From a virus (lineage: Duplodnaviria; Heunggongvirae; Uroviricota; Caudoviricetes), in the IMG/VR virus record IMGVR_UViG_2778261316_000002: a stretch of 5,780 nucleotides of DNA; one strand, given 5' to 3'. Shown one piece after another: positions 1 through 5,780 of the stretch. Both the position numbers and the translations under genes were made by a program. The notes beneath the pieces are model-generated. The model had not been told where the DNA came from. It saw only the letters and a program-made list of their open reading frames with translations, and searched no databases. How positions within the stretch are numbered: position 1 is the stretch's first letter; the number at the start of each line of letters is the position of its first letter.

Positions 1-81
1 GTAGCTGAACAGGAGGGACAGCTGATAGAAACAGAAGCCACTGGAGCACCTCAAAAACACCATCATACACTAAATCAGTAA
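1..81 (+). CDS. 3' end of an upstream gene, probably the tail-fibre variable C-terminal part (Sv); 5' end lies outside the window
   Basis: Frame 1 is the only frame open from position 1 and ends at TAA 79-81, 27 bp before the tfa ATG at 109. The product is assigned from position only. Confidence 0.35.
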   Translation, partial: VAEQEGQLIETEATGAPQKHHHTLNQ

Positions 82-108
82 GTTGGCAGCATCACCACTG
101 GCGTAAGT

Positions 109-576
109 ATGCCCGCCTGTTCCACTGGTATTGACCCGGGCGAATACATTCCGGGGAAAGTGGCAGTATTTACGGGTAAGGGATGGAGCCATGAAGAAGA
201 CCACCGCAATGAGACTGTTTACTCAATCGAAAATGGCGCAGCTGTTACAGTGGATTATATCGGTGCCATCAAAGACGGTTATGTCACGCTTTCACCGTTA
301 ACGCCATACGATAAATGGGATGGTGAGAAATGGGTGACAGATACTGAGGCACAGCATAGTGCCGCAGTAGACGCAGCAGAAGCACAGCGCCAGTCGCTGA
401 TTGATGCTGCAATGGCTTCCATCAGTCTGATTCAACTGAAATTACAGGCCGGACGGAAGCTGACGCAGGCAGAAACAACCCGACTTAACGCCGTGCTGGA
501 TTACATTGACGCGGTGACGGTAACAGATACCAGCACCGCGCCGGATGTCATCTGGCCTGAACTGCCGGAGGCGTAG
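109..576 (+). CDS. tfa: Phage tail fibre assembly protein (Tfa / Mu U-like chaperone)
   Basis: ATG at 109, 155 aa; C-terminal segment ...LDYIDAVTVTDTSTAPDVIWPELPEA is the characteristic Tfa C-terminal signature; position is directly after a tail-fibre 3' end. Confidence 0.85.
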   Translation: MPACSTGIDPGEYIPGKVAVFTGKGWSHEEDHRNETVYSIENGAAVTVDYIGAIKDGYVTLSPLTPYDKWDGEKWVTDTEAQHSAAVDAAEAQRQSLIDAAMASISLIQLKLQAGRKLTQAETTRLNAVLDYIDAVTVTDTSTAPDVIWPELPEA

Positions 577-988
577 GCCATTCAATATCTGGCGCACCGG
601 AAGTATCGACCAGTTCCAGTGTGTCCAGATAATCCAGCCACAAATTATATTGCGCCAGTTCCTCACCTTTCAGGCGACCAATCGCCGCTTTACCAGGCCA
701 TTGCTTACTGTTTATGTATTCGTTGACCTGATTAATCAATTGCTGCTTTTCCAGTTCGGCTGCGGCAATTTGTTCCTCATGAGTTGGCGGTGGAATATCA
801 ATCCATGCAGGCATTCCGTCGATGACGCCTCTGTATTTTCCTTCTGGTGCTTCCTTCATAAATTCGGCGGCAACAGTGTCGTCAATTTCGATTCCATCAC
901 CGGGCCATTCGCCGGATTCCTGATAAGCGATTTTAAGCTCCACAGGGAAAAACGCATTTTTATCGGCACTGAAAATATATCTCTGCAT
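548..988 (-). CDS. tfa: Alternative tail fibre assembly protein (Tfa', Mu U'-like), convergent with the first tfa
   Basis: ATG (cat at 986-988 on +), 146 aa; C-terminus ...LDYLDTLELVDTSGAPDIEWPTPPAVQAR carries the same Tfa signature; preceded 2 nt upstream by the stop of the Sv' reading frame (tight coupling). Confidence 0.85.
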   Translation of the reverse strand: MQRYIFSADKNAFFPVELKIAYQESGEWPGDGIEIDDTVAAEFMKEAPEGKYRGVIDGMPAWIDIPPPTHEEQIAAAELEKQQLINQVNEYINSKQWPGKAAIGRLKGEELAQYNLWLDYLDTLELVDTSGAPDIEWPTPPAVQAR

Positions 989-990
989 TT

Positions 991-1389
991 CTACCGTCCT
1001 ATCGAAATATAACTGAATCTGTATTGATATGAGATATCACTGGTTGCCACACGCCACGCTGAATTACTGATATGTTCAAAATTTACAGACAAAACCTGCG
1101 GGGCAGGATTCGACGGGTCTGACTGAACGGCATCAGACATAACACTGACTGAAACCATCGGCTGATTAGGGAATGGTATAGGGAAGTGTCCACTGATAAA
1201 GCGGGTCGTGTTTCCTGCAAAAGTGCCAAACTGAACAATATATCCACCTGGTAGCCTGAACCATCCCGAACCAGAAGCGAATGCTCCCATATCCGGTATC
1301 TGATTATCTCCTGTGCCCACATCCCTTTTCGCCGCTTCTCCTAAACCAACGTTTATGAAAATGAAGAAATAACAAGCAAATGGCATCAT
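991..1389 (-). CDS. Alternative side-tail-fibre C-terminal variable segment (Sv'/StfE-like), promoterless; expressed only when inversion fuses it to the constant tail-fibre 5' part
   Basis: Open frame 991-1389 on the minus strand reads through the predicted crossover site (1336-1361) and encodes a tail-fibre-like stretch ...VGTGDNQIPDMGAFASGSGWFRLPGGYIVQFGTFAGN... The ATG at 1387-1389 is probably fortuitous and the real segment begins at the crossover site. Confidence 0.6.
   Translation of the reverse strand: MMPFACYFFIFINVGLGEAAKRDVGTGDNQIPDMGAFASGSGWFRLPGGYIVQFGTFAGNTTRFISGHFPIPFPNQPMVSVSVMSDAVQSDPSNPAPQVLSVNFEHISNSAWRVATSDISYQYRFSYISIGR
1336..1361. other. Putative Hin/Gin/Pin-type inversion crossover site (pix/gix-like), right boundary of the invertible segment
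   Basis: TTCTCCTAAACC-AA-CGTTTATGAAAA: 12-2-12 imperfect palindrome with the AAACC / central AA / GTTT core of the hix/gix family; lies about 55 bp upstream of the invertase ATG and inside the Sv' frame, as in Mu. Confidence 0.45.
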
Positions 1390-1415
1390 TCCTGCTTTTA
1401 CCAGGGGGATTTAAC

Positions 1416-1970
1416 ATGCTTATTGGCTATGTACGTGTATCAACAAATGACCAGAATACCGATCTACAACGCAATGCGCTGAACTGTGCAGGGTGTGAGC
1501 TGATTTTTGAAGACAAGATAAGCGGTACAAAGTCCGACAGACCAGGACTGAAAAAGCTGCTCAGGACATTATCGGCAGGTGACACGCTGGTGGTCTGGAA
1601 ACTGGACCGACTGGGGCGCAGTATGCGGCATCTTGTCGTGCTGGTGGAGGAGTTGCGCGAACGAGGCATCAACTTTCGTAGTCTGACGGATTCAATTGAT
1701 ACCAGTACCCCAATGGGGCGCTTTTTCTTTCATGTGATGGGTGCCCTGGCTGAAATGGAGCGTGAACTGATTGTTGAACGAACAAAAGCTGGACTGGAAG
1801 CAGCTCGCGCACAGGGACGAATTGGTGGACGTCGCCCCAAACTTACACCAGAACAATGGGAGCAGGCCGGACGATTAATTGCATCAGGCGTTCCTCGCCA
1901 GAAGGTGGCGATCATCTATGATGTTGGTATATCGACACTGTATAAGAAGTTTCCGGTCGGAGATAAATGA
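1416..1970 (+). CDS. pin: Serine recombinase / DNA invertase of the Pin/Gin/Cin/Hin family
   Basis: ATG at 1416 with GGGGGA Shine-Dalgarno 6 nt upstream; 184 aa beginning MLIGYVRVSTNDQNTDLQRNAL... with the catalytic serine in VRVSTNDQ and a C-terminal HTH region (...GVPRQKVAIIYDVGISTLYKK); near-identical in pattern to Gin/PinE as I recall them. Confidence 0.95.
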   Translation: MLIGYVRVSTNDQNTDLQRNALNCAGCELIFEDKISGTKSDRPGLKKLLRTLSAGDTLVVWKLDRLGRSMRHLVVLVEELRERGINFRSLTDSIDTSTPMGRFFFHVMGALAEMERELIVERTKAGLEAARAQGRIGGRRPKLTPEQWEQAGRLIASGVPRQKVAIIYDVGISTLYKKFPVGDK

Positions 1971-1972
1971 AA

Positions 1973-2013
1973 CCGTAGCACGTCGTATGTAAGAAGATCG
2001 TGCTGCGGTTTAT
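1973..2013. terminator. Putative bidirectional intrinsic terminator between convergent pin and the GIY-YIG gene
   Basis: 10-bp stem CCGTAGCACG (1973-1982) / CGTGCTGCGG (1999-2008) with one G-U pair and a 16-nt loop, followed by TTTAT on + and by TTTCATTTAT on the minus strand. Confidence 0.4.
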
Positions 2014-2030
2014 GCTTATCACTTAAAGAC

Positions 2031-2900
<870 letters not shown>

Positions 2901-2980
2901 CTAAGTCTTTGAATTTACATAGTACAAAAAAGATACTTTTCCTCATAATGTGAATTAATTTTATGTTTCGTTTGATGATT

Positions 2981-3046
2981 GGACCGGTCTCGAAAACCGG
3001 AGTAGGGGCAACTCTACCGGGGGTTCAAATCCCCCTCTCTCCGCCA
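2981..3046 (+). pseudogene. 3' fragment of tRNA-Ser(CGA) (serU-type), anticodon arm to CCA; attachment-site scar
   Basis: GGACCGGTCTCGAAAACCGGAGTAGGGGCAACTCTACCGGGGGTTCAAATCCCCCTCTCTCCGCCA matches the 3' two-thirds of E. coli tRNA-Ser(CGA) as I recall it; the acceptor 5' strand (GGAGAGA) and D-arm are absent upstream, so it is not a functional tRNA. Confidence 0.8.
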
Positions 3047-3567
3047 CTTTATCAATGACTTATCTCCCGACTTCCCGCCTTGCTTTTCCTAAACAGAACA
3101 ATCGTAGAATATTCTTGAAGGGTTAGATCGTCACTGTTTTCTGTTCGATACTGTGACATTCAGCACTTGATTCGCTATGGATCTGACAGGAAGGTTTTGA
3201 GCGAAAATCTGCAGTTATTCAGTCGTTTTCTTATCGGTCACCATTATTCTTTTAGACATTGATCCTACAAAGCTGCCGCAAAGTTGGTGGTGGGAACTGA
3301 AGTTGCGTAGAGAAGGGGTCAATACCCGGAGGCAAACATGGGCTGGCAAAAGTGTAGCGGTATTAGGCGCAGCTATTTAGCCTAGTTATGTTTTATGAAA
3401 ACTTGATGTCATATAAGTGTCTTACTTATTGGCTGTAAATAAGTTTTTTCTAAGGAATTGTTTCTTGAGTATCATTTGTAACTGTAACGGAATTTATAAT
3501 CCTTTGCTTTATTGTTACGGTATTTTTTATCACACCCTATTTTTTATGTGGTTTTTTATACTGAAGT

Positions 3568-3597
3568 TTGGCAAAGTGAACTTTATATGCATATACT
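3568..3597 (+). promoter_or_regulatory. Candidate sigma70 promoter for the AraC-family gene
   Basis: TTGGCA (3568-3573), 18-bp spacer, TATACT (3592-3597); predicted start about 25-30 nt upstream of the ATG at 3631, in very AT-rich DNA. Confidence 0.3.
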
Positions 3598-3630
3598 TCA
3601 TCCTGTTTTCAGTTAAATTGGATGGATGAT

Positions 3631-4374
3631 ATGGCAACTACATGTTCAGTTATATTGATTTTGGAGTCCTTTGATATTTATTTCGGAAAAGAGAGTGTGT
3701 TTCTGGAGAGAGGTTCATCTGTACTTGTCGACTCTAGCTCTAGAGATTTTTTCCTGACATATCCTGAAAGAGTGATAGTGGCGGATTTTGGCGCTGAGTT
3801 TATTAGTCGCTATTTGAAAGCTAATAACTTAAGGGATATTTCTGATTGTAGGGAATATCCATCTTATTTAAAAATAAACTTTGCTGACTTCAGTTTAATT
3901 AAAGGATTAATTAATTGGGCTAATCACTGTGCTGAATACATAGAAATTTTTGATGAGTCTATTGCTTTTACATGTCTCTCTGCATTTTCTTCTGAAAAAC
4001 AATTTGGAGTATTTCTGTTTGGATGTTTGAAAAGCACAGGGGCTAAAGTTAAAACGATTATTCATACGGATTTATCTGCACCATGGCGTCTTAAGGATAT
4101 ATCATCAAGATTATATCTCAGCGAAAGTTTACTAAAGAGGAAATTGAGAGAAGAGGGGGTATCATTCAGTAAGATCATACTTGATGAGAGGATGCAAATG
4201 GCTGAATATTTACTCAGCACTCGTTGTTATCCTATTAGTAAAGTAGCTAAGGTCTGTGGTTATGCCAGTGTCTCATACTTTACTTATGTATTTAGACGTT
4301 ATTTTGGTGTTTCTCCAAGTCAATACTCTCAGAGGAGTTCAGAAAGTAAAATTCTTACTCACCAGGGAATCTGA
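3631..4374 (+). CDS. AraC/XylS-family transcriptional regulator (YdeO/AppY/GadX-like clade)
   Basis: C-terminal double HTH ...PWRLKDISSRLYLSESLLKRKLREEGVSFSKIILDERMQMAEYLL...CGYASVSYFTYVFRRYFGVSPSQY is typical AraC-family. The N-terminus MATTCSVILILESFD resembles the YdeO/AppY N-termini, so the ATG at 3631 (SD-like GGATGGA upstream) is preferred over 3622. The gene is AT-rich relative to flanking DNA. Confidence 0.85.
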   Translation: MATTCSVILILESFDIYFGKESVFLERGSSVLVDSSSRDFFLTYPERVIVADFGAEFISRYLKANNLRDISDCREYPSYLKINFADFSLIKGLINWANHCAEYIEIFDESIAFTCLSAFSSEKQFGVFLFGCLKSTGAKVKTIIHTDLSAPWRLKDISSRLYLSESLLKRKLREEGVSFSKIILDERMQMAEYLLSTRCYPISKVAKVCGYASVSYFTYVFRRYFGVSPSQYSQRSSESKILTHQGI

Positions 4375-4380
4375 TCATTG

Positions 4381-4643
4381 TTCTTGCCCCCTTATTTCCA
4401 GACAGGGGGTGTATCTTAAGTTAACGTTACCCGCTGACGTCGATATTCTCGCGGAGAGCGATAACCCAACGCACTGTGCGGATGGTTTTCATTGTAATGT
4501 TCGATCGCCACTGCAAGATTATGCAATGCCGTTCTTACATTCGGTTTCGGCATGAACGCGATGTAGTCTTCCTTCATCGTTTTCACGAACCTTTCTGCCA
4601 TTCCATTACTCTGAGGACTGCTGATTACCCATGAGGAGTACAA
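4381..4643 (-). mobile_element. IS3-family (IS2-group) insertion-sequence remnant: terminal inverted repeat plus 3' end of the transposase gene; the rest of the element is missing
   Basis: 4381-4420 TTCTTGCCCCCTTATTTCCAGACA... resembles the IS2 terminal repeat (GCCCC...TTTCCAGACA); the adjacent minus-strand ORF encodes a transposase C-terminus; the reading frame is broken upstream of about 4640. Confidence 0.7.
4416..4643 (-). pseudogene. Transposase OrfB (integrase-core, DDE) C-terminal fragment, IS2-like
   Basis: ...[26 protein letters not shown]...[23 protein letters not shown] closely parallels the IS2 InsD C-terminus (SPESNGIAESFVKTIKRDY...[19 protein letters not shown]) as recalled; only about 70 aa are retained. 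Confidence 0.75.
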
Positions 4644-4863
4644 TTAAACGGGTTAATCAGTTTCTCCATTTGAAAGAAAAAAGACTTCTGTACTGTTTGA
4701 TATCACCGCTATTTTCTTATTTTCTGTGCAGGTCGTAGTGGGACAAAACTGAGACACATAAGGCCTCACAATGGCTTGCAAGGCTTTACATGTTTTGATG
4801 TGGTGGGACGTGTGAGCGCAGTGTTGATGGGGTAATACTTTGAATTAGAAGCGGATTCTTATG

Positions 4864-4909
4864 ATTCGTAATGCGAAGGTCGTAGGTTCGACTCCTATTA
4901 TCGGCACCA
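4864..4909 (+). pseudogene. 3' fragment of tRNA-Thr(CGU) (thrW-type), anticodon loop to CCA; second attachment-site scar
   Basis: ATTCGTAATGCGAAGGTCGTAGGTTCGACTCCTATTATCGGCACCA matches the 3' portion of E. coli thrW as recalled; the 5' acceptor strand GCCGATA is absent upstream. Confidence 0.8.
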
Positions 4910-5200
4910 TTAAAATCAAATTGTTACGTAAGATCTTATCATTCTCCCACCAAAAAATTATCTTAATGTAACAGCTGGTGTAAGTAAATTCTATCAACGA
5001 AGATCAATCTTATCTACTGACCAAAAAGGCCTGATAGGGCTTCGCTCACTATACATCCTTGGCTGCAGGTTTAGTTGTACACCACTCCTAAATTTAATGT
5101 GTTGGCAATGTGTTCAATAAAGCTCGAACAAATTAGCTCATTATGATCGGTTAATATTTCAACTTCTGGTTGCATGATTGTTTGTCCGTAAAAAGATAAC

Positions 5201-5225
5201 GCGCCTGCCGGGTAGTAGCAGGCGC
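5201..5225 (-). terminator. Putative intrinsic terminator downstream of the toxin gene
   Basis: Perfect 8-bp GC-rich inverted repeat GCGCCTGC (5201-5208) / GCAGGCGC (5218-5225) with a 9-nt loop; on the minus strand it is followed by GTTATCTTTTTAC. Confidence 0.4.
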
Positions 5226-5290
5226 ATTACGCAATAGGTAAACAAGGGAGGAAGTTCAGAAATGTAAATCGGGAAGGTTGTACGCAATGT

Positions 5291-5780
<490 letters not shown>

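Follow-up and report, generated by a model that had tools for sequence, protein, structure and literature searches.

Gene content of the locus

The stretch analysed here, referred to as the window, comprises 5,780 nucleotides and is the reverse complement of positions 1335949–1341728 of the E. coli record NZ_CM194533.1, a chromosome-level whole-genome-shotgun assembly. The window and the RefSeq record differ by two mismatches, at window positions 349 and 3007, where the window has G and the record has A. Position 3007 falls within a fragment of the tRNA gene serU, and the base in the window is that of native serU. The window and 20 kb on either side of it constitute segment L001, in which the window occupies positions 20001–25780.

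The annotated left part of L001 is sequentially composed of proB, proA, thrW (plus strand), a tyrosine integrase gene (minus strand), xis, a few early lambdoid genes and a truncated exonuclease gene. These are followed by truncated tail genes, an IS1, tfa′, tfa, a gene for a gp53-like fibre tip, pinE and a GIY-YIG gene. The serU fragment, an AraC-family gene, an IS3-type transposase remnant, a fragment of thrW, ykfI, yafW and further CP4-6-type genes complete the order. The prophage remnant at this site consists of the two prophage ends only, 9.4 kb in total, with IS1 inserted.

The window starts in the end of the IS1 (1–97, minus strand), which interrupts a tail-fibre assembly gene of the prophage and adjoins the IS1 transposase annotated at L001 19344–20041. 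In related genomes without this IS1 copy, the match starts at window position 97, and the terminal IS1 repeat can be read at 75–97.

The adjacent segment (109–1970) is an invertible tail-fibre segment, as judged from RefSeq annotation, open reading frames and Pfam matches, and has the same order as in strain 98234. It contains tfa′ (91/109–576, plus strand), tfa (548–988, minus strand) and the gp53-like fibre tip gene (991–1389, minus strand), each given by RefSeq annotation and an open reading frame, and the invertase gene pinE (1416–1970, plus strand), which matches Pfam Resolvase and HTH_7. Positions 91–1970 have the make-up of a Pin-type invertible cassette: the opposed tfa genes overlap by 29 bp (548–576) and are accompanied by an alternative fibre tip and an intact pinE. 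Just 3′ of pinE, positions 1948–2007 give a weak Rfam match to the 3′ hairpin of the Shigella small RNA CssrB (23.6 bits, against a gathering score of 76), which is probably only a terminator-like hairpin.

A LEM-3-like GIY-YIG gene (2031–2804, minus strand; Pfam PF22945) comes next. In serU-integrating phages this is the last gene before the right attachment site, attR. Beyond the serU fragment lie the AraC-family regulator gene (3631–4374, plus strand; Pfam HTH_AraC and HTH_18) and the IS3-family transposase remnant (4416–4643, minus strand), which is annotated as a pseudogene and retains the C-terminal integrase core (Pfam rve_3). To the right of the thrW fragment, the window contains the toxin gene ykfI (5291–5632, minus strand), identified by annotation and a full-length Pfam CbtA_toxin match, and the annotated antitoxin gene yafW (5653 onwards, minus strand), which is cut by the window end.

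The thrW fragment

Positions 4864–4909 (plus strand) read ATTCGTAATGCGAAGGTCGTAGGTTCGACTCCTATTATCGGCACCA. The sequence is identical at 46 of 46 positions to the last 46 nt of the intact 76-nt thrW gene of the same chromosome (L001 15442–15517, plus strand). Allowing up to three mismatches, the 46-mer has a single match in the window, with 0.00 expected from 200 shuffles. The identity runs 10 nt beyond the CCA end through TTAAAATCAA (4910–4919, plus strand), a sequence common to attL, attR and the attP of phage SfI, so the exact direct repeat measures 56 bp (4864–4919). The two copies of the 56-bp repeat lie 9,392 bp apart in one orientation. Within the 94 kb examined around the locus, the thrW 3′ end is present in two copies only.

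The left flank of the fragment is unrelated to tRNA. ARAGORN called no tRNA anywhere in the window, the thrW and serU fragments included, and the Rfam scan likewise gave no tRNA match at either fragment. Shuffled sequence folds as well as the 46-mer (z = −0.10), which forms only leftover tRNA stems. A functional tRNA-Thr gene was considered and ruled out, as the 5′ 30 nt of thrW are missing, no tRNA was called and a complete cloverleaf with an acceptor stem and a D arm is absent. The fragment is not a gene and is without tRNA function.

The thrW fragment as the probable attR of an SfI-type prophage

The attP, attL and attR sites of SfI, a serotype-converting phage of Shigella flexneri, share a core of 46 bases, which is identical in SfII, SfV and SfX, and integration takes place in thrW beside proA (PMC3636060). 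The window 46-mer corresponds letter for letter to this published core (PMC3636060). In the GenBank record of SfI, an attP core feature located between gtrA and int covers the same 46 bp. The fragment can accordingly be described as the core (O) of an attR for an integrase of the SfI/SfII/SfV/SfX type.

The flanks of the fragment conform to the same phage group. Positions 4739–4863 (plus strand) represent the P arm of a thrW-specific attP of the SfI type, with ~97% identity to the SfI attP arm, and the longer stretch 4739–4919 is 97–98% identical to the attP regions of SfI and SfIV. The arm homology reaches further left in phages phi458 and PhiR29, and related arm sequence of other lambdoid phages begins as early as ~4624. 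A five-way alignment assigns the sequence left of the fragment to the SfI P arm and the sequence right of the intact L001 thrW to the SfI P′ arm; the P′ arm at the L001 attL is identical to SfI across the aligned stretch. A P arm to the left of the fragment and a P′ arm at the intact gene form the BOP′/POB′ pattern expected after integration.

The genes next to the intact thrW belong to the same integration module. The L001 integrase matches SfI Int at 370 of 372 positions; its complete frame of 387 codons is uninterrupted and, as in SfI, is separated from the thrW end by 14 bp. The helix-turn-helix protein annotated beside int is an Xis that matches SfI Xis at 115 of 116 positions. The chromosomal site, proA-thrW, is that of the Sf phages. 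The core, the P arm and B′ flanks, and a partner attL with int and xis are all present, as in a thrW attR of the SfI/SfV/P22 type. The core and P arm, combined with the upstream thrW, P′ arm, Int and Xis, mark the fragment as the attR of a lambdoid prophage that is of the O157 Sp1/CP-933H type and has undergone deletion. Overall, the thrW fragment is very probably the attR (POB′) of a lambdoid prophage integrated in thrW, with the serU fragment being captured phage cargo.

Positions 4737–4821 also resemble the right end of the K-12 prophage DLP12 (L015 2001–2085, between ompT and envY), with 95% identity over 85 bp. DLP12 likewise carries an AraC-family regulator, AppY, as cargo near its attR, and AraC-type regulators beside the right attachment site seem to be recurrent in lambdoid prophages.

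Int, Xis, attL and attR all look intact here, judging from their sequences, and the remnant might therefore still excise. The only possible activity of the fragment would be that of a right-hand substrate for excision by Int and Xis, and competence for excision may persist to the present day. In O157 Sakai, a circular form of Sp1 was undetected (PMC2669165). The O157 int gene is truncated, as seen in strain SS52.

The element resembles SfI, SfII, SfIV, SfV and SfX in having the same 46-bp core, a ~97% identical P arm, 99% identical Int and Xis, and a 14-bp spacing between core and int. The same core has been reported for P22. The Sf phages carry the O-antigen modification genes gtrABC next to attP, whereas the window element has pin-invertible tail fibres, a GIY-YIG gene and the serU/PatE cassette at that place. 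Also unlike the Sf phages, it is a 9.4-kb deletion remnant. Attachment-site fragments of K-12 cryptic prophages, such as ptwF-intF of CP4-6 (PMC2951348), are likewise non-functional partial tRNA copies that mark a prophage end. This comparison is one of description rather than sequence, and ptwF, unlike the window fragment, marks the far end of CP4-6.

The right-hand flank and the CP4-6-like element

A CP4-6 element of the K-12 type has its left end on the B′ side of the thrW fragment (4920–5780, minus strand), with 99.8% identity to K-12. In MG1655, the intact thrW joins directly to this right-hand sequence at 99.8% identity, and the same value is obtained when window positions 4864–5780 are compared with the MG1655 stretch that runs from the 3′ half of thrW through ykfI to yafW.

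Several claims of the original prediction can be assessed at this point. It described a 46-nt thrW 3′ fragment at 4864–4909 without its 5′ half, and this description is accurate: 46 of 46 positions match and the 5′ 30 nt are absent. It took the fragment for a true tRNA-derived attachment repeat, which agrees with the exact 56-bp repeat and the SfI core and arms. A CbtA/CbeA-type toxin–antitoxin pair was placed directly to the right, and the full-length CbtA_toxin match and the ykfI/yafW assignment bear this out. It also stated correctly that ykfI and yafW lie beside thrW in K-12 as a paralogous pair; the relation goes beyond mere paralogy, as the window pair is itself ykfI/yafW at 99.8%. The proposed clean module boundary is real at the thrW piece, which has the phage remnant on its left and the CP4-6-like element on its right.

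The far end of CP4-6, with ptwF and intF, is missing in this genome, and a heat-resistance island and IS elements are found instead. The full heat-resistance island lies within the CP4-6-like element (L001 33403–45780; L012 42000–48501), 8–20 kb right of the window. It contains clpK, sHSP20-GI, yfdX1/2, hdeD-GI, trx-GI, kefB-GI, psiE-GI, htpX and an S1C protease gene, and joins near rclC via IS remnants. The isolate with this island came from a food-transport container. In strain MLI104K1, the same place is occupied by the start of the same island, consisting of an IS5 remnant, the S1C protease gene and a truncated Zn protease gene.

Other strains have other neighbours on this side. A P4-type integrase gene begins 160–170 bp right of the thrW fragment in O157:H7 SS52 (L002 19084–19271) and in 98234 (L004 13560–13750), so in these strains the displaced tRNA tail is a common boundary of tandem elements.

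The position of this integrase raises the question of whether the fragment is instead the left attachment site of the right-hand island, CP4-6-like here and P4-like elsewhere, in a copy of thrW, and not the right end of a lambdoid prophage. The P4-type integrase just right of the fragment in O157:H7 and 98234, together with the K-12 junction, in which the same right-hand sequence directly follows thrW, implies that the fragment doubles as the boundary of its neighbour and could be a secondary target. However, the length of the repeat (46 bp plus 10) and the left arm are those of an SfI-type attP, not of a P4-type one. Moreover, the five-way alignment shows that the right flanks diverge among strains directly past the tRNA end, whereas the left arm is constant. 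As a substitute for the lambdoid attR, the assignment to the right-hand element is therefore very unlikely; it is compatible with the attR explanation and fits alongside it rather than replacing it.

Relatives of the prophage remnant

Strain 98234 contains an apparently complete lambdoid prophage of ~42.7 kb between the same attL and attR, and the accession of its integrase protein is identical. The early and late genes of this prophage include exo/bet/gam, repressor, replication, Q, lysis, terminase and head genes and a module for a sheathed tail and baseplate. Its right end contains tfa/tfa′, pinE, the GIY-YIG gene, the AraC gene, the IS3 remnant and the thrW fragment.

Window positions 97–4910 share 96% nucleotide identity and the same annotation with a region of O157:H7 that also lies beside thrW and has a P4-like element next to it. 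Sp1 and Sp2 of O157 have been placed at thrW (PMC8190617), and the integrase gene intH of EDL933 adjoins thrW (PMC2951348). Sp1 has been described as chimeric or highly disrupted (PMC2669165). The window element has both the thrW site and the series of tfa, pinE, GIY-YIG, AraC (PatE) and IS3 remnant before attR that characterize a remnant of the Sp1/CP-933H type.

The likeness to Sp1 of Sakai and CP-933H of EDL933 extends over the thrW site, tfa, tfa′, pinE, the GIY-YIG gene, the serU fragment, the AraC gene, the IS3 remnant and the thrW fragment. The two versions display several differences. Only the O157 version has a truncated integrase gene, IS1203 and a longer IS3 remnant. It keeps immunity and replication genes in place of the int-exo segment. 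In addition, the O157 fragment is followed by the P4-like Sp2/CP-933I, whereas the window fragment is followed by CP4-6.

The AraC protein of the window matches the product of the same-position gene of O157:H7 SS52 at 244 of 247 positions. CP-933H is reported to encode PatE, an AraC-like activator of acid resistance (PMC3681947). On the basis of this report and of 99% identity to the O157 gene, the window AraC gene is a putative PatE orthologue.

In MLI104K1, two IS1A copies bracket the core genes corA and ysgD, which are normally located elsewhere (L014 11881–15092, corresponding to about 2850–3500 of the window). This apparent composite transposon sits between the GIY-YIG and AraC genes of the prophage.

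The serU fragment and its cassette

The serU fragment is located 1.8 kb left of the thrW fragment. Positions 2856–2980 (plus strand) represent the P arm of a serU-specific attachment site and match the left arm of the in situ serU attR exactly in RMDEC332 and almost exactly in PM4. The fragment itself (2981–3046, plus strand) corresponds to nt 25–90 of the 90-nt serU gene (tRNA-Ser CGA), agrees with the native gene of both K-12 and this genome, and would be the core of a fossil serU attR. The tRNA-Ser (CGA) fragment that had been predicted ~1.8 kb away is thus real. Its B′ side is 278 bp of the native serU-yodB intergenic spacer (3047–3324, plus strand), ~97.5% identical to the downstream flank of serU in nearly all E. 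coli. The captured spacer breaks off at a short end remnant of an IS630-family element (3325–3380), which is 93–98% identical to annotated IS630-family elements. Rfam matches to a plastid 3′ UTR family (2992–3043, minus strand), a tmRNA T-arm and sX4 all score below the gathering thresholds and are read as mirroring tRNA-Ser-derived sequence only.

The host serU gene (4360230–4360319) is intact, with nothing inserted, and lies between mtfA and yodB elsewhere on the chromosome. The window copy of serU and spacer differs from the resident copy at ~9 sites. Most of these differences are common to phage ev099, and the break of the spacer at 3324/3325 is identical in the window and ev099. The differences from the resident copy, together with the substitutions and breakpoint common to ev099, indicate that the copy was imported and did not arise by local duplication. 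The same spacer allele is native in some E. coli lineages, at 99.7% identity.

Near serU in the same genome, a tyrosine recombinase gene lies directly beside the tRNA-Asn gene asnT (L013 7734–9239), and the genes that come next are of the LysR, hydrolase, leuC/leuD-like and MFS kinds. They seem to make up a distinct island at asnT, other than the usual yersiniabactin one.

Strains RMDEC332, MB15, Q5 and PM4 contain the junction in situ at serU: the GIY-YIG gene, P arm, serU core and spacer are continued there by yodB or zinT. The GIY-YIG gene adjoins the in situ serU attR in RMDEC332, Q5 and PM4. Since the junction is found in situ at serU and runs into yodB or zinT, it is a genuine attR of serU-integrating phages. 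Q5 was considered as an instance of a longer serU flank at thrW and rejected; it contains an ordinary in situ serU prophage with yodB deleted.

The block 2985–4626, consisting of the serU core, spacer, IS630 end, AraC gene and IS3 remnant, is present at 99% identity in the phages ev099, mEp332 and PhiR70_1, and the homology to all three stops at window position 4626. In free phages a tail-fibre assembly gene precedes the cassette, which in ev099 is located immediately upstream of int. The cassette is also found inside the complete 42.7-kb thrW prophage of 98234. The left arm in the free phages differs from that of the window and is homologous to the P arm of the in situ SerU-LTIIb prophage. 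One core-spacer-cargo block is thus located behind two different serU P arms, both of which match arms of in situ serU attR sites, and the change of arm falls exactly at the boundary of the serU core. P arm, core and host flank are contiguous in packaged phage genomes, which conforms to a captured attR junction.

A donor state, with intact serU followed by the spacer and the IS630/AraC sequence, was found in 0 of 5426 E. coli genomes searched with a chimeric query. The spacer/IS630 junction was found in none of the species-representative genomes, and none of the 29 IMG/VR contigs carrying the junction contains an intact serU. As the donor state occurs in no sampled genome, the fusion of spacer and AraC gene may have arisen inside a phage.

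The original prediction viewed the window as a composite island in which elements of two tRNA specificities had accreted. Under this scheme, serU-type and thrW-type islands were integrated here successively, both fragments are in situ scars, and the AraC/IS block may derive from an island that arrived in between. In favour of the scheme are the two tRNA 3′ fragments, which are separated by 1.8 kb and each mark a switch in the origin of the sequence, and the IS remnants between them. However, the thrW locus has no serU attB, the real serU is intact and unoccupied, and no serU-type integrase is annotated in this locus. The serU fragment, moreover, brings with it 278 bp of the serU-yodB spacer past its core, sequence of a distant locus that does not belong to an in situ serU scar. 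The AraC/IS block forms one cassette with the serU fragment, and the whole of 2985–4626 is found in free lambdoid phages and in a complete thrW prophage. Successive integration of the two types is therefore highly improbable. The locus is composite as proposed, but not through two specificities, as both elements that meet at the scar are thrW-associated. Of the genes to be located in a whole-genome context, intact thrW lies 9.4 kb upstream and serU is intact and empty elsewhere; of the two integrase types, the thrW (SfI-type) one is present.

The serU fragment thus appears, on the sequence comparisons, to be a fossil attR junction captured by a phage and not a second local scar. In specialised transducing phages such as lambda-bio and lambda-gal, imprecise excision takes an att junction together with adjacent host DNA. 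The window cassette resembles these phages in that P arm, core and host flank are contiguous in phage genomes, in a non-essential region beside attP. In contrast to them, the capture would be ancient and fixed in the phage lineage, with 278 bp of host DNA left. The junction has also been joined to IS remnants and a regulator gene, and the phages now rely on different integrases and att sites; imprecise excision is here a presumed mechanism.

The serU core may still allow the PatE cassette to be swapped between phages, either by serU-specific integrases or by recombination in the 344-bp core-plus-spacer. This idea derives from the same cassette, breakpoint and substitutions being located behind two unrelated serU P arms, with the change at the core boundary. 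Continued swapping of this kind is doubtful; homologous recombination within the 344-bp core-plus-spacer would explain the abrupt switch of arm just as well.

Distribution of the junctions

The independent complete genome of MLI104K1 contains the AraC gene, IS3 remnant, thrW fragment and ykfI in the same order. The left junction, between P arm and core, is common to more than 500 genomes, and the junction of core and ykfI is present in K-12. The block from the AraC gene to the P arm is common to ~560 records, and eight IMG/VR contigs have an equal spacing between the cassette and the thrW junction. The K-12-type flank is present in ~450 genomes and the cassette in ~550. The short distance between the two fragments had been thought unusual but is not, as ~10% of complete E. 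coli genomes have them in the same arrangement.

A mis-join at a repeat during assembly could in theory have placed an apparent thrW fragment beside ykfI, and this had been named as a possible refutation. The record is indeed a chromosome-level whole-genome-shotgun assembly, with a 2-base difference from the window. However, the junctions are carried by MLI104K1, hundreds of genomes and K-12, and the 56-bp repeat is far below the read length used for complete assemblies. The probability of such an artefact is negligible.

Proposed history of the locus

The events at this locus can be outlined from the identities and positions given above and from the presence of the cassette in free phages. 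A phage with a 46-bp attP core equal to the thrW 3′ end would have entered by site-specific recombination of the tyrosine-integrase type, in which Int recombines the core with the tRNA gene. The left product, attL, would consist of the intact thrW, the P′ arm, int and xis. The right product, attR, would consist of the P arm, the displaced duplicate of the 46-nt tRNA tail and the old downstream flank. Since this flank corresponds to the left end of a CP4-6 like that of K-12, the ancestral state would be proA-thrW-ykfI, and the phage would have entered between thrW and CP4-6. This order of arrival, CP4-6 first and the phage second, is the parsimonious one; the displaced copy might, in principle, have been the target of a CP4-6-type element instead. 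The prophage would afterwards have lost ~33 kb and gained IS1 to become the 9.4-kb remnant.

The serU junction would have an earlier origin. A phage resident at serU would have taken its attR junction together with host DNA, most likely by imprecise excision; either imprecise excision or recombination could account for the capture. The captured junction would then have been fused to the IS630 end, the PatE-type AraC gene and the IS3 remnant. The cassette presumably spread among lambdoid phages by recombination, including into one with an SfI-type thrW integration module.

Implications

The thrW fragment is a textbook prophage attR of a published and well-understood class and is already explained. 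The Sp1/CP-933H element family has been annotated since the first O157 genomes. Its use lies in annotation, where it sets the boundary between the 9.4-kb remnant with an SfI integrase and the CP4-6-like element.

For phage evolution, the locus indicates that a PatE-type regulator moves in lambdoid phages in a cassette that opens with a captured serU attR junction. If the cassette can still be swapped at its serU core, the PatE acid-resistance regulator would be a site-specifically mobilisable phage cargo. The cassette may be seen as the trace of an old transduction-like pickup and of module exchange between phages of different integration sites.
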